From positions 2,185,981 through 2,249,980 of the forward strand of contig OY759675.1 in the NCBI GenBank assembly GCA_963662515.1: a DNA stretch of 64,000 nucleotides, written 5' to 3'. Positions within the stretch are counted from its first letter, which is position 1; every line of letters begins with the position of its first letter. Positions 6,593-59,500 of the stretch are shown piece by piece. Under the pieces are notes generated by a model. That model saw only the letters and a program-made list of their open reading frames with translations. It was not told where the DNA came from and ran no database searches. The position numbers were made by a program, and so were the translations under genes. Origin of the DNA: Sedimentisphaerales bacterium. Lineage in GTDB: Bacteria; Planctomycetota; Phycisphaerae; Sedimentisphaerales; SM23-30.

Positions 6593-6682
6593 AGTAAGGC
6601 ATTATAACATAAATCCATAAACTGACTAGGGAAAAACCTCAGGGTATCTGGCCAGGGCATACTTATTGTAAGAGATTTATTA

Positions 6683-34446: not shown

Positions 34447-35214
34447 TCTCCTGATTCACATAGTATCAGTGTTTAAAATAACTGAAAACCGTTTCAATCA
34501 TCCTGAACACTTCTTTAAACACAATTCATAAACACAAATGCAACACACAGGAACGAAAACGATCCTGTCATACATATTATTCTACTGGAGGTAAGTATCA
34601 CCCTCTGAGCTGATCACTAAAACGGACCGCACAACGATACATCCACCTTTATACAGGACTTATCGTCAGCTCAGGGCAACTGGATAAATGAAAACTTACA
34701 GATGAGTCTCTTCTCTCTCCGGAACTACATTCAATAATTCTCTTATCCATCTTAAATGTGTGATTATTGGCAGGCTAAACAGGTTACTTTCGGTATATAC
34801 CTGATAAACTATCTACTACAATTCTCTCTCCTACTTTAATGTATGATTCAATTATAGTATGTTAAATCTATTAAAACAATTAAATTTTAATAACACAATT
34901 AGCACAGATAATACCCATAATATGAAATACGGTACAATACAGCACAAGAGCTAATAGCAGTTAACCACTTATATAAACTAGAGTTAATTCTTCGATAGCT
35001 ATTTATGGCCACAATAAACAGCCTGAACTATTCCTGATAAAAAAATAAGTTTTTTAAACAACTTCCCGCTAAAAAGAATCCTGGAAAACATAATACTTAA
35101 AGATTAAACCAGTTATGACGATTATACTGACCGATCAGGCGAACCGGCGGCATAATGGTTTTTCCCTGAACATATGATCATATATATAAGATTATAAGAC
35201 CTAAAATGCTTCGT

Positions 35215-35490
35215 TCAGTGCTCACGATCAAGAGGCACAGGATCATAGCCGCCTTTGGCAAATGGGTGGCAACGAAGAATACGCTTAACAGTCAGCCATA
35301 AGCCACGCACCGGCCCGTACATCAACAGGGCCTGACGACTATATTCACTGCAAGTAGGCACAAAACGACAAGAAACAGGCAAATATGGAGATATGCACAA
35401 CTGGTAAAGCCGGATAAGAAACACCATAAAAGCCAGAGCAGTCTTGTTGATCAACTTAACTATAAAGCAAATGGGTTTATTTCCGGCCAT
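35215..35490 (-). CDS. yidD: Membrane protein insertion efficiency factor YidD
   Basis: It has '[31 protein letters not shown]' and '[14 protein letters not shown]'. Its start lies 1 nt after the rnpA stop. Confidence 0.88.
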
Positions 35491-35491
35491 A

Positions 35492-35866
35492 TCAGAGTAA
35501 CCCTTTCTTTTTGCTTCTTTTAGCTATACGGGCAGTAAGTGTCTTTAATGAGCTGATATAGACAATAGAAGAAATATTATCATTTGGCCTGGGTACTATA
35601 ACAAAATCATATCCAGAGGGAATTTCCTGTCGGTTAAGCCTGAATGCTTCTCTTATACATCTTTTACAGCGATTTCGGGCGACTGCATTACCATATTTAC
35701 GACCAATGGAAATACCAAACCGGCTATAAGCCCGCTGATTGGGCATACCGTATATCAACAAATAACCATCAGCAGAACTGTTTTTTTCTCTGAAAACAGT
35801 CTGAAATGAATCTAAACCTGACAATATAAGGCTTTTAGGTAATTTGTTACTGGCAGCTGGTTCCAT
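35492..35866 (-). CDS. rnpA: Ribonuclease P protein component
   Basis: '[28 protein letters not shown]' is the RnpA basic motif. It is in the conserved position upstream of yidD. Confidence 0.85.
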
Positions 35867-36239: not shown

Positions 36240-37829
36240 TCAGATCACTACATAATTATTCCTGCCGTTCTCCTTTGCCTTGTAAAGACAATTGTCTGCT
36301 GCTTCTATTATCAGGGAAACACCTGCGTTCTCAGAGGTAAGCTGGGCAACTCCAGAACTGAGCGTTACTTTCATACTATCACATTTCCACCTTACAGCTT
36401 TTAACGCCTGATATATTCTCTCCATAGCCAGCTTTGCCTTTTCTTTGTCCTGATCGATAAATATAAGCAGAAATTCATCGCCGCCGTACCTGCCAAAAAG
36501 ATCAGATTCGCGAATAATACCCTTTATTGTATTTACAACAGTAACAATTACCTCATCACCGCTCTGGTGACCAAACCTGTCATTGATCTGCTTGAAATAA
36601 TCAATATCAATTACAGCTACGGACAAATTATGTTGATATCTGACCGCACGGGAGATTTCTATTTCCAGCTTATCCAGGATAGTCTTGTGATTAAGAATTC
36701 CGGTCATACTGTCAGTGGTCGCCAATATTTCCAGCTGCCTTGATTTAGTCTGGATATTGTTAAGCAGATTATTGAACTGAATTGCCAGATAGCCAAGCTC
36801 ATCTTTTCGCTGCGATGACTCCTGAATTGAAAGATCCTCGCTTAGCTGAATTGATTCAATCTCCTGTACCATACGATTCAAAGGCTGCAAAACGATCTTT
36901 CTGGTCAATACAGTCATAACAATAAAGAGTAATAAGAACGATACGGTTATAGCACAAAAGAGATATTTAACCGCTGAAACGCCAAGATTTACTATCTCAC
37001 CATCTACCGCACAGTTAATCTTAAAGACCGGCTGACTATTGTTATCGTAGATTATAGTTGAAATCGTCTGCCGCCCTTCTATCATGGCAAACTTATAATT
37101 ATATGTCTTGAATATTCTGCCATTATTATCAGGAATAACCACATAATCACTGCCGCTATCATCGTCAGAGGCAAGCAGTTCTGCGGTGAAATCGGTACCG
37201 ACACTCTCACGAATTTCATCGAAAAGATCTTCTTCAATAAATCGTCCCATAATTATCGTGCCCCGACACTCACCCTCACTGTCTGAAGGTAAAACAGGAC
37301 AAGAAACAGTGATCAGATAATTCTCCTCAGTAATGCGAACAAAGTTATAGACCAGCTCATCTTTATCGGCATCAGCCGGAAATAGTGTGCCGGGCATAAA
37401 TTCCGGATCACCAGAAAGCTCGGCCAGATCGAGCTCAGCCCTGCTTTGGGTCTCATAACATTTGCCAAAAACCAGTTTGCCCTTAGCATCATAATAGTAG
37501 ATCAGATTCATACCGGTTGTGGCAAATGATTCTGTCTCCAGATTTGAATCTATATATTCCTGATTAAGATCGATGATAAAATTATAGGTATCGTCCCAGG
37601 CGCCCCAATCGTGACATAAAACATTTATATGTAAAATCACATTTTCTACGGTTTTTTGTATTATACTCAGCTCTACCCGTGCCTTTTTATGCTCAAGGTC
37701 AGTAAAAGCCGGTCTGATCAAAAAGTGGCTCACCGACATTAACAGTAAAAGACCAAAAAAACTGACAATTAAGGCAGTGATCAATAACTTAAACTTTATA
37801 GACTCTCTGAATCGTATCATTATTCTCAT
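36240..37829 (-). CDS. Sensor diguanylate cyclase (CHASE4-like periplasmic domain plus GGDEF)
   Basis: It has two TM segments. The sensor region has 'HDWGAWDDTYNFI', which is CHASE4-like. The GGDEF domain has 'DIDYFKQINDRFGHQSGDEV' and 'GRYGGDEFLLIF'. Confidence 0.88.
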   Translation of the reverse strand: MRIMIRFRESIKFKLLITALIVSFFGLLLLMSVSHFLIRPAFTDLEHKKARVELSIIQKTVENVILHINVLCHDWGAWDDTYNFIIDLNQEYIDSNLETESFATTGMNLIYYYDAKGKLVFGKCYETQSRAELDLAELSGDPEFMPGTLFPADADKDELVYNFVRITEENYLITVSCPVLPSDSEGECRGTIIMGRFIEEDLFDEIRESVGTDFTAELLASDDDSGSDYVVIPDNNGRIFKTYNYKFAMIEGRQTISTIIYDNNSQPVFKINCAVDGEIVNLGVSAVKYLFCAITVSFLLLFIVMTVLTRKIVLQPLNRMVQEIESIQLSEDLSIQESSQRKDELGYLAIQFNNLLNNIQTKSRQLEILATTDSMTGILNHKTILDKLEIEISRAVRYQHNLSVAVIDIDYFKQINDRFGHQSGDEVIVTVVNTIKGIIRESDLFGRYGGDEFLLIFIDQDKEKAKLAMERIYQALKAVRWKCDSMKVTLSSGVAQLTSENAGVSLIIEAADNCLYKAKENGRNNYVVI

Positions 37830-38087
37830 TTTCCTGTAATATATTCAGAACAGAGCGGTTACAATTCGCCCCGGACTGCTATTATCGGTCAATTCTGATA
37901 TGAAAATTAGAAAATGTTAACTTATCAGACCACTTTCTTACCCTGAGAACGATCAGCAGAATCTGCAAGATCAAAAAAAAACAGAACATTCCCGGCAGCG
38001 AACAGACTGTCTTAACCTGTTACAATACCCGGCATGTTCTGTTAATATTTTTATAAGCCAGTACGCTGGCCCGGCTCTTTTCCACTT

Positions 38088-38164
38088 AGTAAGAGTCCAG
38101 CGTTTACGCAGTTGAGTTATTCCGAAATCCCGAACTCGCTTCGGGATTTCGCTGCAGCTCAACC
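38088..38164. repeat. REP/MITE-like palindromic element, copy A
   Basis: An extended hairpin reads GTTGAG..CCGAAATCCCGAA-ctcgc-TTCGGGATTTCG..CTCAAC. Related copies are at 41141-41200 and 41251-41297 (same orientation), and at 40237-40285 and 40908-40950 (opposite orientation). Confidence 0.65.
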
Positions 38165-38168
38165 TTTC

Positions 38169-38252
38169 ACTTTTCACTTTTTACTTTTTACTTTTTACTT
38201 TTTACTTTTTACTTTTTACTTTTTACTTTTTACTTTTTACTTTTTACTTTTT
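38169..38252. repeat. Heptanucleotide microsatellite (ACTTTTT)n: 11 perfect units plus 1 degenerate unit
   Basis: Read directly: perfect 7-nt periodicity from 38176 to 38252. It abuts the left end of the IS element. Confidence 0.92.
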
Positions 38253-38273
38253 ATCGGTGTTCGCTGCGCTCAC

Positions 38274-39963
38274 AGCTTTAAGAACCGGCTGAAGGGCTTG
38301 TTGCCCTGAGTGTTTTTTGGCGGGGTTTATTGTATTGTTTTTGTATATTCTGTTTTCAGTTGAATTTTATCTGGAATAATCGGAATTTGGCTCAGGATGA
38401 GGTTTGGGAAGTCGGATTACGCAATAAGTGCAAAAGCTGAGCTAAAATCAGGGTTGAAATCGCGGCTAAAACGGAATTAGCTGCTGTTTGAGCCTTTTTC
38501 ACTCCGGCCAGCGTGATCAGCTTACGCACATTCTGCACTGCTGCTATCAGAAGGTTCTGGATCTCTGCTTTTATCAGAGTTCGCCACCGGCATCTTTTCA
38601 GACCGTGATTGTTTGCGCCATCAGCAAAACTGCCCTCGCTGCGGGCCATTCGCTTTTGTCTCAGACTGCATCTTTCTGCAGAAGTAAAACAACCATCCGC
38701 CCAACGCGAATATTCCATATCAAGCTGCTCGCTTATCTGCCGGCCGCTGCTCTTACTCTTTACACATTCACTGAAATACTGACATTGTTCACATACCTTA
38801 CGATCAGCCTCATAGGCATAGTGCTTGCCATGACTACTGCCTTTTATCCCAGTAAATTCCAGCTTCTCTCCCGCAGGACATATATAACAATTGCGTACTT
38901 CATCATAAACAAATCGGTCTTTCTGAAATTCCCGGCTCTGGCCGCTCGAATGATATCTCGCATGATCAATGCAGGGCATAGCTCCTTTATCCTGCAAATA
39001 TCTGTAATTGTCCAGCGTACCATAAGCCTTATCCGCAACTACTGTCTCAACGGCTTTATGTGTATTTGATTCGTGAGTCTCGATCGCCTGCTCTAATACT
39101 TTGCCATCATTCACATTGGCCGGTGTTGTCACGGTAGCAGTTATAATTCCATGAGCATCATCCACCACCCGATGGTCTTTATATCCCAGCGTGGTTTTGC
39201 CATTCTTTGTGGCTAAACGGGCATCCGGATCACTTTGGCTGGCCCGCTGACAAAGCTCGGCATCGGCAGGCTTAACCTCGGTTTGCGACTTGCTGTTATC
39301 TTCCACTTTGTCCTGATCATCAAGCTGCTCATAGAGCCTGTCGCTGAGCTGATGTATTTGCGGACGCAAATGGTCCTTACTGGCATCAGCCGTTATCGTG
39401 GTAGAATCAATATGAATTATCTCGCCATCAACCAGACCGGCTTCTATGCACTGATCAAGCACTATCTGAAAGAACTCGGCAAATACTTCCCGGCCCCAAC
39501 GCTTGCGGGCCTTGGACAAGACACTGTGGTCAGGGGTCTCATCATCAAGATCATAATCACAGAACCACAGCCAGTCCATACGCAAAGGCAACTGAGCGGC
39601 AAGCTGTCTTTCAGATTTGACATTCTCCAGAAATAACAGAAAGATCAACTTCATGATCACAGCCGGATCGATCGAAGTATTACCCCTGGCTCCATAAAGC
39701 CCGGCTACACGCTTACGCACAAAAGAAAAGTCTATGGCCTTTTTGATCTTACGCAAAGGATGATCCGCCGGAACCTTCTGCTCCAGAGAAATCCCATAAA
39801 ACAACTTCGGCTTAATGTCCTTGGCTTTGCCCATCATAATAAATATATCTCCTGTTATTCAGACAGATATATTTTAAACATTATCAAAACAGATACAATT
39901 AATAAGTTCATGTTTTAATAAATATTTGGGCAACACGCCCTGAAGCCCGGTACTCTTAAAGCT
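38274..39963 (-). mobile_element. IS1182-family-like insertion sequence (~1.7 kb) with imperfect ~35-bp terminal inverted repeats
   Basis: The left IR AGCTTTAAGAACCGGCTGAAGGGCTTGTTGCCC (38274-38306) matches the reverse complement of the right IR GGGCAACACGCCCTGAAGCCCGGTACTCTTAAAGCT (39928-39963). It encloses a single transposase ORF. The exact ends and target duplication are uncertain. Confidence 0.75.
38392..39837 (-). CDS. IS1182/IS5-superfamily DDE transposase
   Basis: The N-terminal DUF772-type region reads 'HPLRKIKKAIDFSF...SIDPAVIMKLIFLLFLENVKSERQL...DWLWFCDY'. The DDE region has 'IHIDSTTITADAS' and 'VVADKAYGT'. The 481-aa length fits IS1182-family enzymes. Confidence 0.88.
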   Translation of the reverse strand: MMGKAKDIKPKLFYGISLEQKVPADHPLRKIKKAIDFSFVRKRVAGLYGARGNTSIDPAVIMKLIFLLFLENVKSERQLAAQLPLRMDWLWFCDYDLDDETPDHSVLSKARKRWGREVFAEFFQIVLDQCIEAGLVDGEIIHIDSTTITADASKDHLRPQIHQLSDRLYEQLDDQDKVEDNSKSQTEVKPADAELCQRASQSDPDARLATKNGKTTLGYKDHRVVDDAHGIITATVTTPANVNDGKVLEQAIETHESNTHKAVETVVADKAYGTLDNYRYLQDKGAMPCIDHARYHSSGQSREFQKDRFVYDEVRNCYICPAGEKLEFTGIKGSSHGKHYAYEADRKVCEQCQYFSECVKSKSSGRQISEQLDMEYSRWADGCFTSAERCSLRQKRMARSEGSFADGANNHGLKRCRWRTLIKAEIQNLLIAAVQNVRKLITLAGVKKAQTAANSVLAAISTLILAQLLHLLRNPTSQTSS

Positions 39964-40101
39964 CACTTCGTTCGCGTTTTATTATCTCACACCACCAGCC
40001 CAATCTCAACTGTCGCTTCGCAAATCTCGCCCGCGTGAGCGTAAGGACCTGAAGCCCGGTACTCTTAAAGCTCACTTCGTTCGCATTTTATTATCTCACA
40101 C
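39939..40101. repeat. Direct duplication of a 54-bp segment comprising the outer half of the IS right end plus adjacent sequence
   Basis: CCTGAAGCCCGGTACTCTTAAAGCTCACTTCGTTCGC(G/A)TTTTATTATCTCACAC occurs at 39939-39992 and again at 40048-40101. Confidence 0.85.
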
Positions 40102-40236
40102 TTTTCAGTCAAACACACCTGATGCCACCGGTTGCAACAGTCACAACTCCAACCATGATAATTCATCGCCAGCGGCGATGACCCACCCCATAGCAACTAT
40201 TCAATTTTCCCCCGCTGCTGTCAGCAGCAGCGGACC

Positions 40237-40285
40237 CGCCCGTGCGGTCCCGAAGCGAGTTCGGGATAAACTCCAGCGACAATGG
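40237..40285. repeat. REP-like unit in inverted orientation, with a near copy at 40908-40950
   Basis: GCCCGTGCGGTCCCGAAGCGAGTTCGGGATAAACTCCAGC compares with TCGCCCGTGCGGTCCCGAAGCAAGTTCAGGATAAACTCCAGC. The core is the reverse complement of ATCCCGAACTCGCTTCGGG. Confidence 0.7.
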
Positions 40286-40576
40286 TTTTTTCGGGGTTTT
40301 TGAGCTTGGGGTTAATTTTTTTCTGGCGGTTCGATCTTTTTTGGTCGGCCCGCTAAAAGCGATCTGTCGGCCCAGTTTGAGCAAATATTTACTTTTCAAA
40401 GAATTAGCGCTATCGCTGTTTTCTGCCGGTACTACCATTTAATTACTGCTGATAATCTGATAAAATCCGGCTGAGAAATTTATCGGAACCTGCACTGGCA
40501 GGCCAGGCCCCATAACTGCGGCGAAATACAAATGGTGGCTCCAAAATAAAAAAATCTTTTCAAAAACCAAGTCATA

Positions 40577-40805
40577 CTTTTAATTAAATCAACTTGCTTT
40601 TTAATTTCCGCATTTATTTTTTTAATTTCCACAACTATTTTTTTAATTAAATCGATCGTACTTTTAATTAAATCACTTGTCTTTTTAATTAAATCGATCG
40701 CACTTTTAATTAAATCACTTGTCTTTTTAATTAAATCGATCGTACTTTTAATTAAATTGCTTATCTTTTTAATTAAATCGATCATCTTTTTAATTAATTT
40801 GGTTT
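40577..40805. repeat. Tandem array of about 11 direct ~21-bp repeats, each containing the palindrome TTTAATTAAA
   Basis: The units are CTTTT(T)AATTAAATC followed alternately by GATCG(T/C)A or ACTTGT, which gives a 42-bp higher-order period. The outer units are degenerate. Confidence 0.88.
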
Positions 40806-40818
40806 GCTTTTATTTATT

Positions 40819-41135
40819 TAAACCACAGAGTCACAAAGTTTTTTTTAACCACGAAGCACACGAAAAACACGAAATTTAAATTAATAAAACCAGATGCCAC
40901 GGCAAGTTTCGCCCGTGCGGTCCCGAAGCAAGTTCAGGATAAACTCCAGCACTGTGATTCGTGGTTAAAGAATATTTTTTACCATGAAGTTCATGAAGAT
41001 ATTGAAGAAATTCAATTAACACTTCACTTACTCCACTAACTCCACGGTTCAAAATAGTTTTTGTTTTTTAAACCACAGAGGTCACAGAGGTCACAGAGTT
41101 TTTTTTAACCATGAAGTTCATGAAGATATTGAAGT
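40819..41135. repeat. Dispersed short repeats (AAACCACAGAG..TCACA.AGTTTTTTTTAACCA(C/T)GAAG and ACCATGAAGTTCATGAAGATATTGAAG)
   Basis: The first motif is at ~40819-40858 and ~41069-41115. The second is at ~40981-41007 and ~41109-41135. Confidence 0.7.
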
Positions 41136-41140
41136 TTTTT

Positions 41141-41297
41141 TGTAAGAGTTCAGCGTTTACGCTGTTGAGGTAATCCGAAATCCCGAACTCGCTTCGGGGG
41201 TCCTTACGCCGGACGGGCGAAACATTAGTACTCTTGCCTTTTGCTGGAGCCCTTTACGCTGTTGAGGTACTCCGAAATCCCGAACCTGCTTCGGGAG
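41141..41297. repeat. Two further REP-like palindromic units (copies B and C)
   Basis: Copy B reads TGTAAGAGTTCAGCGTTTACGCTGTTGAGGTAATCCGAAATCCCGAACTCGCTTCGGGGG. Copy C reads CCTTTACGCTGTTGAGGTACTCCGAAATCCCGAACCTGCTTCGGGAG. Confidence 0.7.
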
Positions 41298-41421
41298 ATC
41301 TTTACAGTAGTTTGAGTTGGCCGCGAGTGAAGTTGTTATTATTTTACCTTTCCGAACCCGGCTTGATTAAGTTTTATTTATTTAATTAATCAGTCTCGAG
41401 CGAAGCGAGAATCATGAGCTT

Positions 41422-41463
41422 ATTTCATATTTCTTATTTCTTATTTCTTATTTCTTATTTCTT
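41422..41463. repeat. Heptanucleotide microsatellite (ATTTCTT)n: 5 perfect units plus 1 degenerate unit
   Basis: Read directly: perfect 7-nt periodicity from 41429 to 41463. Confidence 0.9.
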
Positions 41464-41602
41464 TTTTTCAGCCAGAATAACCGGGCGATTACGCCTTTGA
41501 TCTTTATAATAGTTTGAGTTTGTTTCAAGTGAAGTTGTTACTATTTTTCTTTCCGACTTTGGCTTGCTTTTGTTTTTATTGAATTACATATTCCGGATGG
41601 GT

Positions 41603-44233
41603 TTATTGATCTTTGATCATGTCTGCGAGTCTGGCAGTTTCGGGGCAATATGGGTATTGCTGCTGCATTTGCTGTAAGATAAGATCGGCGGGCTCTGGCT
41701 GTTCCAGGGCCAGAAAGGCCTGGGCCCTCAGATAGAGCAGTTGGTGCATAATATTATCAGAAGCAGACAAAGCCATACATCGCCCGGCAATATTAGCCTG
41801 CCGGAGAGATGACCCGGCTGCCTTTAACAGGGCCAGACGGGCGAGATTAAAATCAGGGGTAAACAGCCAGGCAGGCGATTTATTCAGGGCCTCACTGAGC
41901 TCATTAAAGCTCGCCGCAATCATTTTTTGATCAGCCCCCTGAGCTGCCAGCCGGGCCCGGCGCAAAATGGCCGTCAGTTCCTGCTGTCTCATATTCTCAT
42001 CGGCAGGTGAACCGGTGGGCATAGTAAAATAGTCTGATTCGGCCAGTGCTCTGCCGCAGCCCAGATCAATCTCGGCCCGGAGTATCTTGGCAGTGAGAAT
42101 CTGTTTTAAGGACAGATCGCCCTTTAAGCGTTCCAGCTCACGCAGGGCCAGGCCATAATCAGCGGCATGATCGATCAATAATCTGATATAGAGCAGGCGG
42201 GCATCGATAAACCGTTTATCCTTTTCAATATTATCAGAACTGAGCATGGCAGTCAGAAGCTCCAGTGCCTTTGTTGTCTGGTCTGAAGTAATAGCAGAGA
42301 GATACACCGCCAGTTCATAATAAAAGTCCGGATCAGCACCAGTAGCCAGCGAATCTGGGGGCCGGGCACAAATAATATCGGCTGTTGCAGATCGCAGGGG
42401 ATCCATTTCCAGCTCAGTTGCAAGCCTGAATAAGCCTTTAAGGCTGTTAATATCAGCATGGGCCAGAAAGACAGGATCCAGAGCATTATCAAAGAGCTGC
42501 TGATTACGAGGCTCGCATCTGAGCCTGTCAGTATCAATGTCGGCACATACCATCTGTCTGGCAGTAAAGACTGTATTACCGGCCCTGACAGCAGTCAATG
42601 TAACCTCATACAAACCGCGAGCGAGATATACATGTTCGATCTGGGCCCCCTGTGCAATAAGGCCATCGCCCAGCCGCCAGCGATATTCCAACTGGTCAGT
42701 ATCGTAACCGGCAGGCGGTATTACCTGAAAGCCGATCGCAACCAGCGCAGGTGAACCATCGGCAATATCTGCCCGCATATCATCGGTTACCTGCCAGCTG
42801 AACGAACCGCACAGGTCGCTTTTGGCACTCTGAATTGAATCGGGCCGATAGTAACCCCAGCTAAGAAATTCAGGGGCTGTCATAATACGATATACTCCAT
42901 CGGCATAACGCCAGGCACACATAGTGAACTGACTGCCCCATTTATTATAATTCATATACTCGAATTTGTGAATGCCGGGCTCCAGATAGATTTTACCGCT
43001 GTATTGGCAGCGACGACCGGCATGAAAATCATGTTTTCCCGGCCAATGCACAACAAACCGGTCATCAACAAAAACGGTTGAACCCCAGTTTGAAGCCGTG
43101 GCAAAATCATATTCACCGGCCTGATGAATATTGAACCAGCCTTTATAGGTATATAATGCCAGAGAGCTGTTTTGCTGGTTAATGAGCTTATCGCCCGGCC
43201 CGAGCAAGGCGGCAGGATAACTGGCATGAACTGCATCAACCGGCCGGAAATCAACCGGCCGGGCCGCACCAGACCAGGCTTCCATAAAACCCGGATGAGT
43301 ATAGACCTGCTCGATGTTCTGAGTGAGTATTTTAGTTTCAAGCGATAACCCGGCAGGATGCGGCCAGGGGGCAGACTGAGATAATGCAGTATCATCTGCT
43401 GCTGTGAACACATAAGCGTGGTAGTATAATTCACTGCCTGAACTGCTGTCAAAGATGATCCGAAGCGGCTGATGCCGGACATTACTGACAATATGTGCTG
43501 ATACTTCAACTCCGGTGCTGTCGAAAACTTTAACAGCACTAATCGGACCGATAATACCATCTGGCAGATAAAGATCTGCCAGTGAACCCGGCGGGAATTT
43601 GCCCAGCTCAAGAAAGCCGGGAGCAGACCATATAACCTCACTGCCATTATCACCCGAAACCATGGTTAAAAGCTTGAGTTTGCGTACCTCCGGCGCAACA
43701 GCAACATTTATCTCGATCGCTCTGGCATATTTATCGATCTGAGGTGAGACAAATAATCTTTCATTGTCAGCCCAGACCTCAACCCGCACCCGGGCTGCAT
43801 CTGAAGCATTGTCAGCAAGCCCCACCTGGGCGGTAAATCCCCGATAACGGCCATTACAGCGATAGACCGCAATGCCTGTACCTTTTACCGCCATAAAATA
43901 ACTGCGAATCCGGCCATTGAGGGTTTTATACAAGGCTTTACCCGGTTGCGGGCCAAAAGAAAGATTGCCGGTAGAATCAGGATTGACCAGTCTCACATCG
44001 GCCAGATGAATATCAGGAATGACAGACTTATCAGTGTCAGGCCTGAGAGTAAATGCCAGTTGAGCTGAGGGACAATGCCATTGACCGGCACTGACAGCAG
44101 GACCGATGAAACTGATAAGCACTAACAGAAACAGGATCATCAGTTGTGATAGCGAGGTCAGACGCTCTGGGCCAAACATTGTTACAGGCAGGAGCCGGGA
44201 CGAACTGCCAAAGTTGTCAGTTAGTATTTTCAT
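41603..44233 (-). CDS. Membrane-anchored or secreted multidomain protein: NPCBM-like, PA14, PKD and a C-terminal TPR-like helical region
   Basis: It has an N-terminal hydrophobic anchor (LMILFLLVLISFIGPAVSA). The NPCBM-like segment reads 'IAVYRCNGRYRGFTAQVGLADNAS...VRVEVWADNERLFVS'. The PA14-like segment reads 'GWFNIHQAGEYDFATASNWGSTVFVDDRFVV'. The PKD-like segment reads 'YRWRLGDG...HVYLARGLYEVTLTAV'. The C-terminal ~300 aa are Ala/Leu-rich helical repeats. Confidence 0.65.
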   Translation of the reverse strand: MKILTDNFGSSSRLLPVTMFGPERLTSLSQLMILFLLVLISFIGPAVSAGQWHCPSAQLAFTLRPDTDKSVIPDIHLADVRLVNPDSTGNLSFGPQPGKALYKTLNGRIRSYFMAVKGTGIAVYRCNGRYRGFTAQVGLADNASDAARVRVEVWADNERLFVSPQIDKYARAIEINVAVAPEVRKLKLLTMVSGDNGSEVIWSAPGFLELGKFPPGSLADLYLPDGIIGPISAVKVFDSTGVEVSAHIVSNVRHQPLRIIFDSSSGSELYYHAYVFTAADDTALSQSAPWPHPAGLSLETKILTQNIEQVYTHPGFMEAWSGAARPVDFRPVDAVHASYPAALLGPGDKLINQQNSSLALYTYKGWFNIHQAGEYDFATASNWGSTVFVDDRFVVHWPGKHDFHAGRRCQYSGKIYLEPGIHKFEYMNYNKWGSQFTMCAWRYADGVYRIMTAPEFLSWGYYRPDSIQSAKSDLCGSFSWQVTDDMRADIADGSPALVAIGFQVIPPAGYDTDQLEYRWRLGDGLIAQGAQIEHVYLARGLYEVTLTAVRAGNTVFTARQMVCADIDTDRLRCEPRNQQLFDNALDPVFLAHADINSLKGLFRLATELEMDPLRSATADIICARPPDSLATGADPDFYYELAVYLSAITSDQTTKALELLTAMLSSDNIEKDKRFIDARLLYIRLLIDHAADYGLALRELERLKGDLSLKQILTAKILRAEIDLGCGRALAESDYFTMPTGSPADENMRQQELTAILRRARLAAQGADQKMIAASFNELSEALNKSPAWLFTPDFNLARLALLKAAGSSLRQANIAGRCMALSASDNIMHQLLYLRAQAFLALEQPEPADLILQQMQQQYPYCPETARLADMIKDQ

Positions 44234-50762: not shown

Positions 50763-53700
50763 TCAATTCCCCGGCGAAGGTAACCCGCCAGTCCAGTTTT
50801 CCGGCTCATTGGCATAGCCGTTATCAACCAGACGAATAAGCGAATAGCCACTGCCATCGGCCTCGGTTGGCCAGGGCGCATCATCGCTATAATTAACACG
50901 ATCAGCTCTGATATAAGTCCGGATATCACCATCAAGCTCACCCGGTATCTGCAATTCGACCTTTTCCCCGGAATTTGATAGCTTTCCTGCCGTCCACTGC
51001 ATATATCTTGTATAAGGCGAAAGCGGGCCATACTCCTGTACAAAAGCTGAAATATCTTTTATCAGCAGAAATTTTTCACCTCTCAATAAAGTTACATTTG
51101 TTGGCAATACCGCCATTACACCATCTTCATCGATCAGACGCCAGGGCATAATTTCAGCAGTTACCGGATCTATAAATCGCAGTTGTAATGAAGCTGCCGA
51201 TATATTTTTTAGCTCGATATATTCAGCATCTGAATCGCCAGCCGGGTTATACATTATCTCAGAAATGACTAATGGACTGGTACGGGGCCAGGAATTGGCT
51301 CGTCCGGGAGTTGCCTCCAACAATAAGATAAAATTAAATGAGCCATCACTTTTCTGATAACGGCCATATGAAACTCCTTGCGGAGCTGCATCAAAATCTT
51401 CAGATACCTGATAGCCGGTAAGCACTCCATTTACCGCCGAGCTAAGAGTAAGATCTTCACCAAACTTGCTCAGACCAAAACTTGAACCGAAACTAGTCTC
51501 ATCATATAACACAAGATAACCATCTGCAGGAACAACAGTTCCCTGTTCTATCTGATATTTGAGCAGATCAGAGCTTGAATCACTTAAATACCAACCACCA
51601 ATATTTATCGGCTTAGAGGTATTATTCTTCAACTCAATCCAATCAGGCATACCATCCTCCGGATTTGACATCACCTCATTGATCACAATACTGTTACCAG
51701 TAATAGCCTCATCCAGCTCACCTGGCGATCCGCCGGCATAAGTACTCACAGCCCAGCTTTCTTTCTTATTCCAGAGAGATAGGTCACCCTGAGTAGGGTC
51801 TGGTATATTTATAGAAAAACCCTTTCCATCAGTCAGGTCATACCAATCGTTAAACTCAAAGTTCTGTATTACCTCACCGCTGGCATCACAGAAGACTATA
51901 TATTCGCCAGCATTATTTAAAGATCCCGAATCCCATTGCATAACAATAATATCTGCAGGTAAATCAGGATATCTGCCAGCAAAAGCGACACTATCCTGAG
52001 TAAGCACAATAAACTGATCAGGAACTAGCCAGAGATCACCAAAAGTATGGTTTATACCCTTATTAAAAGATACTTTATTAAGATTAACCGCTCTTTGTCC
52101 AATATTGCGGATCTCAAGATACTCCACCCCGTTAAGCTCAGGATGATACATCAACTCAGTAATACGCAGACTTTCACTAACCGGACCAACAGAATAAAAT
52201 GCCTTAGTAACCGGCGACCATTCTACACCATCAAACACACGGGTATTGATCTCACTGCTAATATCAAGCGTTATCGGAGATGTGTATTCTATGGCATGCT
52301 CAGCAACCTGCCCAGGATCCTCAACACCAGCAACCAACACCGCAGATATAAGCATATCGCTACTGCCAGCATCATCATTCAAACCCTGTATAGCAAGAAC
52401 ATTATTGCCATTGCGTAATAGGCCGATATGCCGACTGATATCAACCTGGGTCATGGCTATTGATATACTGTCATCACGAGGCGTATCTGCCTGTGAATTA
52501 TAGTTTAGCAACACACCATCAACATTATCTCTAAACACTTCTACACCATTAAGATAGACCACACAGCCATCATCATAACGCAAATTCAATTTCAAACTGT
52601 TAATGTCAGCACTTGCAAAGTTAAATGGTATTCTGATATAGCAGGATGTTGCTTTATTATACATCTGACTCTGAAGGTTAATGCCTGCATTAATATAACT
52701 GGAATAGTTTATTGAATCTCCCGGCCGGTTCTCATAACCAACTGCCCCTGTACCATTGATCCAGCTGGTAGGGACATAATTCACAGAAGCCCAGATGTTT
52801 TCCGGAACTGAAAGATATTGACCGGGAATGATTATCGGCCCGCTTATACCCGGACCAGACCAGCCTACATTAAGATTATCGGCTCCACTACCCTCTTTAT
52901 GCAAAGCCTCGAGATAGTATGGCTTGTTATATTCAAGATAGATTTGTTCTGATTGCTGACTGCCATCCTTATACCATTCATTACTATATGACCAGGTTGT
53001 CAGATAAGCAATTTCAACAGCATTAGCCGGACTTGCATCAGAACTTAACCTGAGACTGCTATTATCATCACTGGTTATCCAGAATGTATAGTAGCCAGTA
53101 GCCGGAGGATACAATATGGCCCGAACTCTTGTTCCATAATTATCATTATGGTCAATAGCAGGCATTGCCAGCGAAGGCCATAGCTCTCTGTAGTTTGGAT
53201 TTGCTGGATAATTAACCGATGAAGTCAGGGCCGAAAGAGCATTGCCCTGTATGTTGTTATAAACCTCTGCCAGTACATTACCAGTGGGTTTCATTATATT
53301 GGCCGTAGGTACCAAAACATATTTAAAGGCATTTTCCGCTACTAATACCGTTTCTGTAACATTGATATTGTCTGGCAACTCTCGTGGGTCAGAACCATCA
53401 GTAGTATAATATACCACCCCCCTGCCATTAGGATTAGACATAGTAAGCTGGTAACCAGTTTCAACCTTACCACCATAACTGCTTAACACAGTTGATTCCA
53501 GATCAGAATACCAGCCTACCGAACGAAACTGTTCTTTCAATCTTTGTTCTCTGGGATACTTTGGCCAATCCTGCCTGGCATTTAATGTACCATTGGTTGA
53601 CAGTGTACTACTGGTGCCATTAATCCAGTTATAGGTAAATTGCAGGGCATCGAGCCAGTTGGCCTTTGTCCGTGGTACTGAGCTGGTCGAATCACCCCAA

Positions 53701-56530: not shown

Positions 56531-59500
56531 TTAATAGCCGGGCGTTGGCAGACCATAGGTCCAATTCAAATAGTCGTTACCATATACCGAATTGTTATTG
56601 CGGTGCAAAGCATCGCCACCACCATCAGCAGAAACCGGCCAAAGATCAGCATCATCATAATTGACACGATCAACCCGTATATAAAACCGCTCTACACCAT
56701 CGGTATCGCCGGGCATCTGCAATTCTATCTTCTCGCCACCATTTGACAATTTCCCCGTTTCCCACTGAACAAACTTCGTCCCTGAAGCCAGTTCGCCGTA
56801 TTCCGAGATAAAGGCTGTTAAATTCTGCAAAAGAAGCATCTTTTCGCCAGGCATAAGCACCGTATCTACCGGGAATGTCAACATTACACCACTTTCATCG
56901 ATAAAACGCCAGGGAACTATCTCAGAATTCTCTGTATCTGAAATCGAAAATGTCACTGGTAAAGCCGATATATTCTGTATTTCAATATATTCAGCATCTC
57001 CGTTCACAGCCGGATTGTACATGATTTCTGTAATCACTACAGGGCCTACCAATGGCAGAGAATTTACATTACCCGGCGTGGTTGCCTGCATGGATACAAA
57101 ATTATAGCTTCCATCACTTTTCACATATCGGCCAAAAGAAACTCCGGTAGCAGATGCACCAAAGTCCTCAGTAACCAGATATCCTGTCTGAATACCATTT
57201 ACCGCCGAACAAAGTGATACTTCTTCACCATTCTCGCTAAGGGCAAAAACACTGCCAAAATGCATGTCCTCATAAAATACTACAAATCCATAGGGAGCTA
57301 TAAAGGTACCATCCGGTATCTGGTACTTTAGTAAATCTGTACCTGAATCACTCAAATACCATCCACTGATATTGATTGCCATGTCAGTAGTATTATACAA
57401 CTCGATCCAGTCGGGAAGAGTAGAATGAGAATGAGCCAAAACCTCATTGATCACAATACTATTTGTAGCCAGAGCATTATCAATTACTCCTGGGGTGCCG
57501 CCCTTTACTGTACTTGTCGTCCAACCATTCTTCTGACCCCATAGGCCAAGATCTGTTGCTGCCGGATCCACCAGCGTAAGCGAAAAACCTTTCGCATCTG
57601 TAAGGTCATACCAATTACTATAACTAAATGATTGTATCAAACCACCTGCCGCATCAAAATATTCGATCTTTTCACCAGCATTATTCAATAAGCCGGAAGT
57701 CCATTGCAATACTACCGTATCTTCAGGAATATCAATATAGGCAATATCAAAAGCGGCCTTGTCTGACACAAGAACCACAAAACCTGAGGGTTCAACAATA
57801 GTATGTCCAAAAGTATGATCTATGCCATTTCTAAATATAACTTTATTAAGATCTATTGTCTGAGTTCCGATATTCTGTAATTCAATAAATTCCAAATTAG
57901 ATTGTACGGGATTATACATTATCTCAGTAACTCTAAGACTTTGAGCTACAGGACCAATTGCAAAAGTTGCACTTGTCAGTGCTGACCAGCTATTGCCAGT
58001 AAATACCCTGGCCTTCACTTCAGTACTATTGTTCAATACTACCGGCGAATCATATTTTTCTGCCGTAGCTGCTGGCAAACCCCTGGATATCTGACGACAA
58101 GCCAGTGAAACAGACATCAGCATATCACTACTATCTGTTTTATCATTAAGTGCCTGTATTGCCAATACATTATTCCCATTTATCAAAAGATCTTTATGAT
58201 GAGTTATATCAAACGAAGTTGAAACAATAGCATCACCATCATTACGGAAGTCCCTTGCTTCACTGTTCCAGGTCAAACCGTAAGTCTCATTTACATTGTC
58301 CCGCAAGATCTCTACACCATTGAGATAAGCTACAAAACCATCATCATATCTGATATTAAGTTTAAGCTCATCCATGTCAGATTGCTCATATATAAATGGT
58401 ATTCTAATATAACAGGTTGCATTTAGTTTGTACATCTGACTCTGAACATCAATGCCAGAACTAACAAAGTTCGAATAATTTATCTCATCTCCCGGCTTAG
58501 TCTCATAAGCAACCGGACCAGAGCCTGATATCCACCCTGAAGCATCATAAGAGGGCAGAGTCCATATATTCTCTGGGGTTTTCAAATAGGCATTTGGTAT
58601 TACAGTCGGACCGCTTATACCCGGCCCCTCCCAGCCTACATAAAGAAAATCTCCTCCAACATTATCCTTCTGCAAAGCTTCGATATAATAAGCATTACCT
58701 GCCTGCAAAGTAATTACCTGAGAGCTTTGAGAACTGAACTTGCCCCAGTTACCCGGATCACCCCAGGTATTCTGCCCGTAAATATACGCTATCTCTGTTG
58801 CGTTGGCAGGATCAGTATCAGTACTCAGAAGCAAACTGCCATTATCATCACAATTCAAATAGAATGTATATTCTCCCGTAACTGGCGGATACAGCAATCC
58901 CCTTGTTCTGGTACCATAATTATCATAACGATTGGTAGCTGGTACCGCATAATCCTGCCATACTTCAACTGTGTCTGGAGAATGAGGGTAATCAGGAGAT
59001 TGCAGTAAATAGTCCACAAAAAAGCCAGGGATATTTTTATATATTTCAGCCAAAACTCCCTGGCTATTTAATACACCTGATGGAACAAGAACCTGTTTGG
59101 GAGCATCTTCTGTGACCAGATACACAGTTTGGGTAGCACTTGCAAATACATCACGCGGATCTGCACCATCGGTAGTATAATAAATATCTCCTGTATTATC
59201 CGGATTTGTCATGGTCAGGGCATAACCATCAGAAACATACCCACCATGCTGGGAAAACTCAGGTGCATCTAATGCCGGATACCAGTTAACACTGCGGAAC
59301 TGATCCATTACTCGTACTTCTCTGGGCTGCAATGGCCATGTCTGATAATTATTCAGATTGGCATAGGTCAGGGTTGTCTTTGTACCCTGCAAAAAGTTAT
59401 AAGTAAACTGCAAAGCCTCAAGCCAGGTAGCCCGTGTATAAGGCGTAGAAGAAACCATATCACCCCAGCGTGCCGACTCGGCAATTATGGCATTATCTAA

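Follow-up and report, generated by a model that had tools for sequence, protein, structure and literature searches.

The interval at positions 37830–41602 of the window, by which we mean the whole 64-kb stretch of DNA analyzed, lies between the start codon of a GGDEF gene (37829) and the stop of an NPCBM/PKD gene (41603). A first-pass annotation had described it as a repeat area with a transposase as its only credible gene; the repeat-rich interval is real, and all five repeat classes were found where they had been placed. Locally repeated 12-mers cover 21.9% of positions 38001–41800, compared with 0–3.3% in the non-overlapping windows, and the strong tandem repeats of the 64 kb are all confined to this interval. 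Its features are the following.

37973–38043, minus strand: intrinsic terminator made of a long hairpin and a U9 tract, separating the repeat cluster from the GGDEF promoter and start.
38086–38163, plus strand: mosaic unit copy 1, left module GTAAGAGTCCAGCGTTTACGCAGTTGAG and a 53-nt palindrome around the core CCCGAACTCGCTTCGGG (D3, I20).
38165–38253, plus strand: (TTTTTAC)x12.7, 98% matches by TRF.
38274–38294: left half of a palindromic target module, AGCTTTAAGAACCGG, with the left CTGAAG copy.
38295–39939, minus strand: IS1182-family insertion sequence of 1645 bp with 12-bp terminal inverted repeats GGCTTGTTGCCC and GGCGTGTTGCCC.
38392–39837, minus strand: intact 481-aa transposase ORF (Pfam DDE_Tnp_1_6, DUF772 and DDE_Tnp_1).
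39940–39992: right CTGAAG copy, right half of the target module, CCCGGTACTCTTAAAGCT, and conserved flank (D5).
40037–40101: unoccupied paralogous target module, GCGTAAGGAC-CTGAAG-CCCGGTACTCTTAAAGCTCAC... (D5).
40223–40438, minus strand: dispersed module of ~215 bp ending in a hairpin of subtype 2 (core 40249–40265).
40578–40808: array of ~11 units of 21 bp, TTTTAATTAAAT plus 9 nt; AT-rich, 29% GC.
40808–41137: two rounds of an A/B module pair, with a T-run, AACCA and 9-nt x3 mini-arrays (D4, D7, D10, I13).
41139–41198, plus strand: mosaic unit copy 2, reaching ~41237, with imperfect terminal inverted repeats TGTAAGAGTTCA / GCAAGAGTACTA (D3).
41236–41295, plus strand: mosaic unit copy 3 (D3).
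41297–41590: tandem duplication of ~200 bp, 41297–41390 against 41499–41590, 81% identical (D6, D9).
41419–41467: (CTTATTT)x7, 92% matches by TRF.

The terminator folds as RNA with a dG of -29.6 kcal/mol (z -3.2), and 0 of 200 shuffled sequences folded equally well. The claim that no credible gene accompanies the transposase holds. The 101-aa ORF running through the 21-bp array was rejected as a gene, being without homologues (a single match, E = 8e-4) and absent from public gene calls. The 91-aa ORF at 40163–40438 is called in public annotation and is an orphan with no Pfam match; of 1.84 billion representative proteins, only P0145, encoded on the same genome contig, is related to it. P0145 is identical to residue 60, differs in the loop (S to W) and departs from the ORF right after the hairpin. 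The ORF is probably spurious.

The transposase matched the NCBIfam IS1182 equivalog NF033551 at 335.8 bits (cutoff 270), and the IS1182-like element proposed in the first-pass annotation is intact, with termini and target duplication. The IS transposed into the loop of a palindrome, duplicating CTGAAG as a perfect 6-bp target-site duplication (38289–38294 and 39940–39945), and the reconstructed empty site has a 15-bp stem with the duplication in the loop (dG -14.6 as DNA, z -2.9). The unoccupied module lies ~100 bp from the occupied site, is 98% identical to the occupied right half and folds more weakly (dG -8.4); its interpretation as a solo IS end or IS remnant was rejected, as it is an intact empty target site. 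A Logan contig 93% identical to the IS covers 38299–39941, the same 4.24-Mb contig carries at least four transposase variants, and the 13-mer GGGCGTGTTGCCC stands at both ends of the related IS copies L171–L173. Because a palindrome target was seen for this one copy only and the flanks of L171 and L172 are non-palindromic, a palindrome specificity of the IS is not established.

Five hairpin cores of the form CCCGAA-N5-TTCGGG are present, at 38129(+), 40249(-), 40922(-), 41182(+) and 41279(+), compared with 0.1 expected by chance; there is none elsewhere in the 64 kb, and the other 60 kb contain no member of the repeat family. Of the earlier proposal of at least five palindromic REP/MITE-like units, the five cores stand, but the units are heterogeneous: a full palindrome, of 53 nt, exists only at 38111–38163 (dG -30.7, z -6.4), two copies keep the left arm alone, and the other two represent a second subtype, GCTGGAGTTTAT-core-ACCGCACGGGCG. 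One of these (core 40922–40938, minus strand) lies inside the A/B rounds, flanked by 26-nt inverted repeats at 40835–40860 and 40953–40978. The label REP/MITE-like holds only as an analogy: the units lack the GTAG that marks REPs, no RAYT was seen, and the resident IS, with its GGGCGTGTTGCCC ends, is not the source of the modules. The five hairpins belong, as modules, to a mosaic, BIME-like family.

Both T-rich heptanucleotide microsatellites, the 21-bp array and the duplicated segments (D3–D10, 23–60 bp, 68–98% identity) were likewise confirmed. The centre of the 21-bp array is a 42-bp A/B unit repeated 3.8 times at 93%, and TRF detected five mini-arrays of 9 nt x2–3 at 40850–41136, those of the A/B rounds having the units CACAGAGGT, CACGAAGCA and CATGAAGTT. 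Nested tandem duplications with periods of ~130, 200 and 255 bp occupy 40.8–41.6 kb; the ~200-bp duplication encloses the module CTCGAGCGAAGCGAGAATCATGAGC together with the (CTTATTT)x7 array (41396–41467) and abuts the stop of the NPCBM gene. The arrays are 92–100% homogeneous, so recent amplification is indicated. With the perfect target duplication in a palindrome loop, an empty paralogous site adjoining, nested duplications and homogeneous arrays, the interval has undergone insertion and duplication, as had been suggested, and the cluster may still be variable.

The units do not occur only here. In the Sedimentisphaerales MAG JAFGDI01, modules were found on at least eight contigs, directly 3' of stop codons, in stretches of 36–57 nt that are 91–100% identical and include a heptamer array. 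Mosaic unit copy 1 has 35–36-nt matches (94–97%) to contigs of this MAG, and the units at 41139–41295 are identical over 40/40 nt to contigs L022, L053 and L060 and 90% identical over 58 nt to L008. The CTCGAGCGAAGCGAGAATCATGAGC/CTTATTT region is 91% identical over 57 nt, heptamers included, to L057, and the 12-mer module of the 21-bp array is found on L057 in single copy, after a CTCGCTTCGCTCGA module. The modules also form a 220-nt long-hairpin element in this MAG, with a stem of inverted heptads (z -5.8), in which short TTTACTT/TTTTAAC heptads make up one arm, the counterpart of the TTTTTAC array. Another copy of the ~215-bp module with its hairpin lies at a different place in the same 4.24-Mb genome. 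Since the modules recur on MAG contigs and elsewhere in the same genome, the repeat units are a dispersed family, which may be sparse in this genome (at least two loci). The 7-, 9- and 21/42-bp arrays have the appearance of family modules amplified by slippage.

The interval is probably a non-coding mosaic repeat cluster built from dispersed palindromic modules, which were duplicated and amplified and then invaded by an IS. The cluster would have grown within what was probably a narrow space, with the NPCBM/PKD gene on one side and the GGDEF terminator and promoter on the other, from small palindromic modules of a family dispersed in Sedimentisphaerales-like planctomycetes. The set comprises a CCCGAA-CTCGC-TTCGGG hairpin that comes with two types of flank, a AGCTTTAAGA...TCTTAAAGCT palindrome and the modules CTCGCTTCGCTCGA and TTAATTAAAT. 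We infer that modules arrived or were copied in both orientations; no Y1/RAYT, integrase or second transposase was found within the 64 kb as a mobilizing enzyme. Replication slippage probably turned module-borne 7-, 9- and 21/42-bp units into arrays, as suggested by their homogeneity and by the single-copy counterparts in the relative, and the repeat map shows local tandem duplications of 130–255 bp as a further route of growth. An active, multi-copy IS1182-family element entered the loop of one palindrome afterwards. The cluster most likely serves no dedicated role; as by-products, the hairpins and downstream terminator probably keep read-through out of the GGDEF gene, and further insertions find a safe landing pad in the cluster.

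A different reading, which we regard as unlikely, is that the hairpins act as functional signals, in RNA or DNA, that a conserved host factor reads (3'-end stabilizers, processing sites or insulators, for example), the cluster being a pile of these and not of selfish or neutral repeats. The exact 19-mer core is present at 80 or more loci in several phyla, distant ones included, with 59 of 88 sites outside any open frame of at least 120 aa, and is associated ~10-fold with heptamer arrays. The next two bases lengthen the stem by AT at 32% of sites, compared with 6% expected. At five Flavobacteriaceae loci (labeled Salegentibacter twice, Flavobacteriales, Aequorivita and Patiriisocius; HSP70 by Pfam in 2 of 5), the hairpin lies in the dnaK 3' UTR, ~55–70 nt after the conserved DnaK-type C-terminus, and the UTR around it varies whereas the hairpin itself does not. 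This conservation at an orthologous position hints that the core hairpin is functional and not merely selfish, and the element on contig L053 also follows a stop codon in sense orientation. However, the five copies in the window stand in both orientations against uniformly minus-strand genes, one arm of the extended palindrome is lost in three of the five copies, Rfam gave no match for either the window or 18 related loci, and a literature search found no paper containing the hairpin sequence. One terminator would moreover suffice, making five hairpins and the arrays superfluous.

It is very unlikely that the repeats form a phase-variable control region in which heptamer number switches expression of the GGDEF (c-di-GMP) gene, even though a (GTAAAAA)n array lies on the coding strand 336–424 bp upstream of its start and long simple repeats are classic contingency switches (PMC4679880). 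The strong terminator stands between the TTTTTAC array and the gene; therefore, the GGDEF promoter must lie in the 140 bp below the terminator and the heptamer array is not in it. The remaining arrays are cut off by the IS and 3 kb of other repeats, 7 bp does not correspond to a helical repeat, and the array does not occupy a spacer of -35 and -10 elements. GGDEF homologues of 50% identity have upstream gaps of ~300 bp and unrelated contexts.

Equally doubtful is the view that proteins bind the 21/42-bp array, as iterons or as a sopC-like centromere, and that an integrated plasmid or phage left it behind. The array resembles these in its phased direct repeats (21 bp, two helical turns), its AT-rich DNA and its internal palindromes, TTAATTAA and ATCGAT/CGATCG in each repeat. 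In contrast to such arrays, it has neither a cognate rep or par gene nor a replicon around it; rep, par, integrase and phage genes are all missing from the ORFs annotated in the 64 kb, and a search of 72,556 plasmids gave no match. The 12-mer is single-copy and joined to another family module in the related MAG, which argues that the array is an amplified mosaic module; elsewhere, arrays sharing the 12-mer occur only in viral contigs of very high AT content, a resemblance probably due to chance. Reading the array as a replication origin was rejected, as DnaA boxes are not enriched and a skew switch is absent. Highly improbable, and largely refuted, is local decay debris, that is, dead genes and old IS copies unique to the locus: one solo target module, several degenerate unit copies (68–81% identity) and an otherwise family-free window fit it, but the modules lie at other places in this genome and on many contigs from another species, the presumed solo IS end is an intact empty target site, and the interval yielded no pseudogene-like ORFs with family matches.

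The mosaic cluster that we favor is of a familiar bacterial kind, while the repeat family itself is undescribed. Like the REP/BIME/REPIN elements of Enterobacteria and Pseudomonas (PMC3116915), it consists of short extragenic palindromes and small motifs, mosaic, in both orientations and dispersed in the genome; the long hairpin of the related MAG is made of two inverted halves, as in REPINs, and, as with REPs, a unit served as IS target, here in the hairpin loop. Unlike REPs, it has no GTAG motif and no RAYT gene seen in the 64-kb window, its modules carry heptamer arrays, and its core 19-mer is common to several phyla, whereas REP families are lineage-specific. The resident IS resembles the IS1182 family and REP-targeting IS in its DDE transposase, short terminal inverted repeats, target duplication, multiple copies and palindrome-loop insertion, but differs from REP-targeting IS in that a palindrome target was seen for one copy only. 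REP sequences were reportedly described as IS targets by Tobes and Pareja in 2006 (IS1397, ISKpn1).

Heptanucleotide arrays are the commonest long simple repeats in prokaryotes (PMC4679880), and they differ between close relatives with the same gene neighborhood (PMC4679880; PMC4692102). Cyanobacterial STRR, the TAACTGA repeats of Beggiatoaceae, Cyanobacteria and Bacteroidetes (PMC4679880) and GGGAATC of Xanthomonas (PMC4692102) are likewise intergenic tandem heptamers, often with several units per intergenic region; they are missing from the same neighborhood in close relatives, and their patchy phylogeny suggests horizontal spread with no known vehicle. The units here are A/T-rich (TTTTTAC, CTTATTT), unlike TAACTGA, CCCCAGT or GGGAATC. 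The arrays here and in relatives are physically joined to a hairpin module that is conserved, and the stem of the long palindrome in the related MAG consists of them; such a link is not described for known heptamer repeats in the consulted sections of PMC4679880 and PMC4692102.

The family also resembles small dispersed repeats in having a ~21-nt hairpin-forming unit in many unrelated contexts, inside other repeats too, but differs from them in sequence and in spanning several phyla rather than one cyanobacterial clade. Such repeats (SDR, 21–27 nt) were reportedly described in heterocystous cyanobacteria by Elhai et al. in 2008. Insertion polymorphisms are the defining evidence for SDR mobility. 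As a separate observation on the hairpin unit, it replaces the anticodon arm in the tRNA-like units of L029.

The interval 37830-41602 is a cluster of REP/BIME-like modules, heptanucleotide arrays and one IS; the family is undescribed, and the type of system is already known. The cluster lies between two genes:

36240-37829, minus strand, CHASE4-HAMP-GGDEF gene
41603-44233, minus strand, NPCBM/PKD/PA14 gene

Since both flanking genes are on the minus strand, which carries all the long ORFs across 30-62 kb of the window, the interval lies 3' of the NPCBM gene and 5' of the GGDEF gene. Ordinary chromosomal genes surround it, namely those for CstA, the biosynthesis of riboflavin and haem, transketolase, GH127, rnpA-yidD, PilM, RmuC and an MCP. 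The best homologues of the GGDEF gene were 50% identical and lacked synteny, and a single metagenome scan gave only distant GGDEF-domain matches.

Each of the repeat classes listed in the first-pass annotation was found in the interval. Locally repeated 12-mers make up 21.9% of 38001-41800, compared with 0-3.3% in non-overlapping windows, and the strong tandem repeats of the 64 kb are all confined to the interval. The hairpin pattern CCCGAA-N5-TTCGGG has five sites there, where chance predicts 0.1, and the remainder of the 64-kb window has none. A second gap, of approximately 770 bp (34447-35214), has no ORF of at least 40 aa and no member of the hairpin family; it carries weak 9-10-nt tandem repeats at 34862 and 34926.

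All five hairpin cores are intergenic with stems of 6-8 bp, one of which is extended to 53 nt. The complete 53-nt palindrome is found only at 38111-38163 (dG -30.7 kcal/mol, z -6.4). The copies at 41182 and 41279 retain only the left arm GCTGTTGAGGTAATCCGAAAT, and those at 40249 and 40922 form a second subtype, GCTGGAGTTTAT-core-ACCGCACGGGCG. There are thus two flank subtypes, together with the shared motifs ACGGGCGAAA and GCGTAAGGACC, and the copies lie in both + and - orientations. The REP/BIME (REPIN) systems likewise consist of short (20-40 nt) imperfect palindromes outside genes, arranged in mosaics with other small motifs in both orientations; they differ in that their hairpins have a conserved GTAG at the 5' foot, which is absent from the consensus of this family, GTTGAGGTAATCCGAAATCCCGAAC. 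In its extended form, each arm of the window hairpin consists of two heptads (TCCGAAA TCCCGAA), a speculative hint that palindromes of this type originate when heptamer arrays are inverted.

An intrinsic terminator that had not been listed previously was found on the minus strand at 37973-38043 (dG -29.6, followed by U9), and it separates all the repeats from the GGDEF gene. A promoter switch for the GGDEF gene was rejected because of this position. The protection that this downstream terminator gives the GGDEF gene may explain why the cluster is tolerated.

The transposase is the sole credible gene of the interval, and two other ORFs were evaluated as candidates. The 101-aa ORF spans the 21-bp array and is omitted from the public gene calls. 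It is simply the only frame left open by the palindrome TTAATTAA, and the frame stays open across the units because 21 is a multiple of three. It gave a single marginal match (E = 8e-4) among 5.8 billion proteins. The 91-aa ORF (40163-40438) is present in the public annotation. Exhaustively searched against 1.84 billion representative proteins, it matched three sequences and no others: itself, a 2305-aa protein of low complexity, and P0145, a 90-aa protein encoded on the same genome contig. P0145 is identical to the 91-aa ORF through residue 60, has a loop variant of the hairpin (IPNWLRD in place of IPNSLRD), and diverges directly after the hairpin. Its tail, GWWCKIIKRERSEL, is the translation of another interval module, the flank of the AGCTTTAAGA palindrome. 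P0145 is thus a composite of two interval modules at a second locus of the same genome, so the hairpin family occupies at least two loci there and the 91-aa "gene" looks like a repeat copy. Neither ORF was accepted as a gene, as they belong to no family and have no homologues except the paralogous repeat copy. For annotation purposes, the interval is a repeat cluster with one IS, not a set of genes.

The transposase scored 335.8 bits against NCBIfam NF033551 (equivalog cutoff 270), covering profile positions 7-488 of 488. With a transposase above the cutoff, inverted repeats, a target duplication and multiple copies, the element agrees with the IS1182 family in all these features. It extends over 38295-39939 (1645 bp). 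Its 12-bp inverted-repeat ends, GGGC(G/T)TGTTGCCC, agree at 11 of 12 positions, and a perfect CTGAAG target duplication lies on either side of it (38289-38294 and 39940-39945). These bounds are based on the termini of related IS copies at different sites in two fetched loci, L171 and L172, both of which end exactly at GGGCGTGTTGCCC, and on a 93%-identical contig from another sample that covers window 38299-39941. The 13-mer ends of the window IS are also present in relatives L171-L173. A 33-bp inverted repeat running from 38274 to 39963 was considered as the IS ends; it is the palindromic target, and the related IS copies rule it out. The 93%-identical sequence (nucleotide level) is a 1642-bp Logan contig from an independent run, SRR24962751 (L169), and it suggests that public data include a related strain or species.

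When the IS and one CTGAAG were excised in silico, the sequence AGCTTTAAGAACCGG-CTGAAGC-CCGGT(AC)TCTTAAAGCT was obtained. This reconstructed target forms a 15-bp stem with the hexamer in the loop (dG -14.6 as DNA, z -2.9), so the IS entered a palindromic module at its hairpin loop. A 54-bp duplicate, at 40048-40101, is an unoccupied paralogous target module with CTGAAG intact. This duplicated segment (D5 in our repeat map) was also considered as a solo IS end, which was rejected since it is the empty paralogous target site. The locus provides a clean case of an IS1182-family element in a hairpin loop. A general preference of the IS for palindromes cannot be claimed because the flanks of L171 and L172 are non-palindromic. 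Four distinct transposase sequences of more than 90% identity were found on the same 4,243,401-bp contig. The intact ORF, the perfect duplication and the presence of at least four transposase variants on the contig indicate that this is a recently active, multi-copy IS. The IS had no match in the plasmid collection.

The 40.8-41.6 kb region consists of nested tandem duplications. In the repeat map, pairs of A/B modules (D7, D10) are spaced approximately 255 bp apart in this region and B modules (D4) approximately 130 bp apart, and a duplication of approximately 200 bp (D6, D9) abuts the NPCBM stop codon. The identities between duplicates range from 68% to 98%, so the duplication events are of different ages. 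Five mini-arrays of 9-nt units in two to three copies (40850-41136), absent from the earlier list of repeats, were also detected. The 97-bp unit at 41141-41237 has imperfect ends, TGTAAGAGTTCA and GCAAGAGTACTA, matching at 9 of 12 positions. The possibility that the hairpin units are a MITE of the resident IS was rejected, since the termini of this unit are unlike the IS ends and no target duplication is evident.

The tandem arrays are highly homogeneous: TTTTTAC is repeated 12.7 times at 98% and CTTATTT 7.0 times at 92%. They resemble the heptanucleotide LSSR/STRR arrays in being intergenic tandem 7-nt units, longer than expected by chance, and differ from them in the unit itself, which is not CCCCAGT or TAACTGA. 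The 21-bp array (29% GC) comprises approximately 11 contiguous units, each combining a constant 12-nt part with a stretch of 9 nt for which two forms alternate. No copy of this array was present in any fetched locus. Six viral contigs have two phased copies of its 12-mer in common with the window. We judged this match to be chance: in the one contig inspected (L164), which is very AT-rich, the 12-mer TTTTAATTAAAT and the 21-bp period are in common with the window array, and the 21-bp unit is the contig's own and unrelated. The L164 array itself (IMG/VR contig, extremely AT-rich, positions 681-782) has 4.9 copies of 21 bp, TTTTAATTAAATAATTTAGAT.

To locate the family elsewhere, the 19-mer ATCCCGAACTCGCTTCGGG of the hairpin was scanned against one genome per GTDB species, and at least 80 loci were obtained, compared with approximately four matches expected for a random 19-mer (our own estimate; 596 Gb, both strands). 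Among the matches listed, the exact 19-mer was present on 10 contigs of the Sedimentisphaerales MAG JAFGDI01, and the extended unit on eight. Other loci listed belong to further Sedimentisphaerales, Phycisphaerae and Anaerohalosphaeraceae MAGs. Non-coding modules are up to 100% identical between the window and the Sedimentisphaerales MAGs, which suggests that the window comes from a Sedimentisphaerales-like planctomycete. Window 41160-41199 is identical at 40/40 nt to three of these loci (L022, L053 and L060), and L008 aligns with the window over 58 nt at 90%, including the left module GTAAGAGT...CAGCGTT. Window 41396-41452 aligns with L057 over 57 nt at 91%, comprising the CTCGCTTCGCTCGA module and (AAGAAAT)n heptamers; in L057 the 12-mer TTAATTAAAT directly follows the CTCGCTTCGCTCGA module, just outside the aligned stretch.

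In MAG JAFGDI01, the elements are placed right after stop codons as units of approximately 220 nt, in the order of terminal small hairpins, GTAAAAG-like heptads, core hairpin, second hairpin and those heptads again in inverted form. The whole unit folds as a single long hairpin (dG -38.6, z -5.8). The window (TTTTTAC)12.7 array corresponds to an amplified counterpart of one arm of this unit, and the starting module of the window 21/42-bp array, TTTTAATTAAAT + N9, is single-copy in a relative. Because the heptamer is a unit arm and the 21/42-bp module is single-copy in the relative, the arrays are read as slippage amplifications, not independent features. In L004 (Sedimentisphaerales MAG JAFGDI... 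Zod_Metabat.1436), a 12-copy 9-nt array, TCCACNNCG, was observed at 3651-3762, ending only a few bases upstream from a start codon on the minus strand, which GGAG precedes. GTGGAC-type 9-mers akin to it also occur in L014 and at window 41021-41045.

The interval is therefore a mosaic whose modules are dispersed both in the relative MAG and at a second locus of the window's genome, and the units are not confined to the interval. The original reading of a repeat hotspot is broadly right: the locus is insertion- and duplication-prone, non-coding and a mosaic of a dispersed family, with an IS in a hairpin loop and nested duplications. We found no description of a mosaic hairpin-plus-heptamer family in Sedimentisphaerales-like planctomycetes, with no Rfam match and no paper with the sequence.

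Other identities were evaluated. The phased direct repeats of approximately 11 × 21 bp resemble iterons or plasmid centromeres, which have 17-43-bp direct repeats in AT-rich DNA; they differ from these in that the window lacks a cognate gene of the rep or par type. Nor does the window have integrase or phage genes, and the repeat area was unmatched in the plasmid collection, so the reading as a remnant of a plasmid or phage was rejected. Immediately downstream of the GGDEF gene, at 35215-35866, are yidD (Pfam YidD) and rnpA (Pfam Ribonuclease_P), and yidD-rnpA clusters often adjoin oriC. A chromosomal origin was considered because rnpA-yidD is 2 kb away, and it was rejected: DnaA-box-like sites were not enriched (15 observed, 20.7 expected), the skew follows the gene strand without a switch, and minus-strand genes lie on both sides. 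CRISPR arrays consist of identical 23-50-nt repeats with unique spacers of similar length; the units here are contiguous without unique spacers, and this identity was rejected as well. An attC-like reading of GTTGAG...CTCAAC was dismissed, as no integrase is present and the motifs run in the order opposite to RYYYAAC...GTTRRRY. Searches for known RNA families were negative for the window, for the interval at E <= 5, and for 18 related loci.

With regard to the origin of the cluster, the modules would arrive by copying; no RAYT (Y1_Tnp) was present among the annotated ORFs of the window, which also offers no other candidate, and GTAG is absent. The arrays would grow by replication slippage, to which heptamer arrays are usually attributed in the literature (PMC4679880; PMC4692102). 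Published heptamer-rich intergenic regions are missing from the corresponding gene neighbourhood of close relatives (PMC4679880) and differ between Xanthomonas species (PMC4692102). By analogy with those regions (PMC4679880; PMC4692102), the cluster may be variable between strains, and if so it would be a good strain-typing marker. It is also a likely breakpoint in short-read assemblies.

The core hairpin was also analyzed beyond planctomycetes. The 80 loci listed contain 88 exact 19-mer sites, 59 of which are outside any open frame of at least 120 aa. In 32% of the 88 sites, compared with 6% expected, the seed is followed by AT, which extends the stem, and a heptamer array lies within 120 nt of 18 of them, compared with a background of 2.1% in the same loci. 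Seven is the commonest tandem-repeat period in these loci (67 rows), which represent relatives and not the window's genome. CCCGAA-N5-TTCGGG was absent from approximately 1 Mb of unrelated control loci, and an IMG/VR scan with the real, loop-permuted and stem-permuted 19-mers gave no matches for any of the three. The unchanged hairpin occurs in mostly non-coding DNA of Planctomycetota (Sedimentisphaerales, Phycisphaerae), Bacteroidota, Victivallales, Treponema and others, and a literature search found no paper containing its sequence. In Saprospiraceae, NNNCAGT-type heptamers surround it. They include ACTGGGG, which was seen only in the Saprospiraceae matches; its reverse complement, CCCCAGT, is the STRR1 unit of cyanobacteria.

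Five Flavobacteriaceae loci (L018 5735-5900, L030, L080, L079 and L050), with the alignment labels Salegentibacter (two), Flavobacteriales, Aequorivita and Patiriisocius, have the hairpin 55-70 nt past a conserved DnaK-type C-terminus, which was identified as HSP70 by Pfam in two of the five (L018 and L079). In this dnaK 3' UTR, the hairpin lies between a variable hairpin and an intrinsic terminator and is invariant while the surrounding UTR differs, so it may be a conserved 3'-UTR element. In the Aequorivita MAG contig JBLWUV010000003.1 (L029, 4380-5340), a genuine tRNA-Arg(ACG) stands beside tRNA-Arg-like units in tandem with a 114-bp period, one full-length and six 5'-truncated. These units have the hairpin ATCCCGAACTCGCTTCGGGAA in place of the anticodon arm, each is followed by a terminator-like hairpin, and ARAGORN called only the genuine tRNA. 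This replacement is the one hint of the behaviour that marks the cyanobacterial SDR micro-elements, 21-27-nt units that are present or absent at orthologous sites which are otherwise conserved.

A doubtful reading, which we regard as possible, is that the 19-25-nt hairpin (CGAA)ATCCCGAACTCGCTTCGGG(AT) is a trans-phylum micro-element which nucleates or travels with heptamer arrays; it would be either mobilised in some unrecognised way or a recognition target of a conserved host factor. The hairpin bears on the old question of why the distribution of heptamer arrays across phyla is so patchy. If the association with heptamers is true, the hairpin would serve as a sequence handle for distinguishing horizontal spread from convergent factor-driven selection.

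Two further observations were made. The contig with a 51%-identical GGDEF homologue (L082) has intergenic CTAACTA-type heptamers downstream of dnaK at 6625-6670, and its dnaK 3' UTR lacks the hairpin and carries an ordinary terminator. In the window, the tandem genes at 50763-56369 and 56531-62137 each encode exactly 1868 aa with LTD, CotH, CHB_HEX_C and PA14 domains, and their products are 55% identical over the full length; the pair is an old tandem duplication in which the length has been kept.
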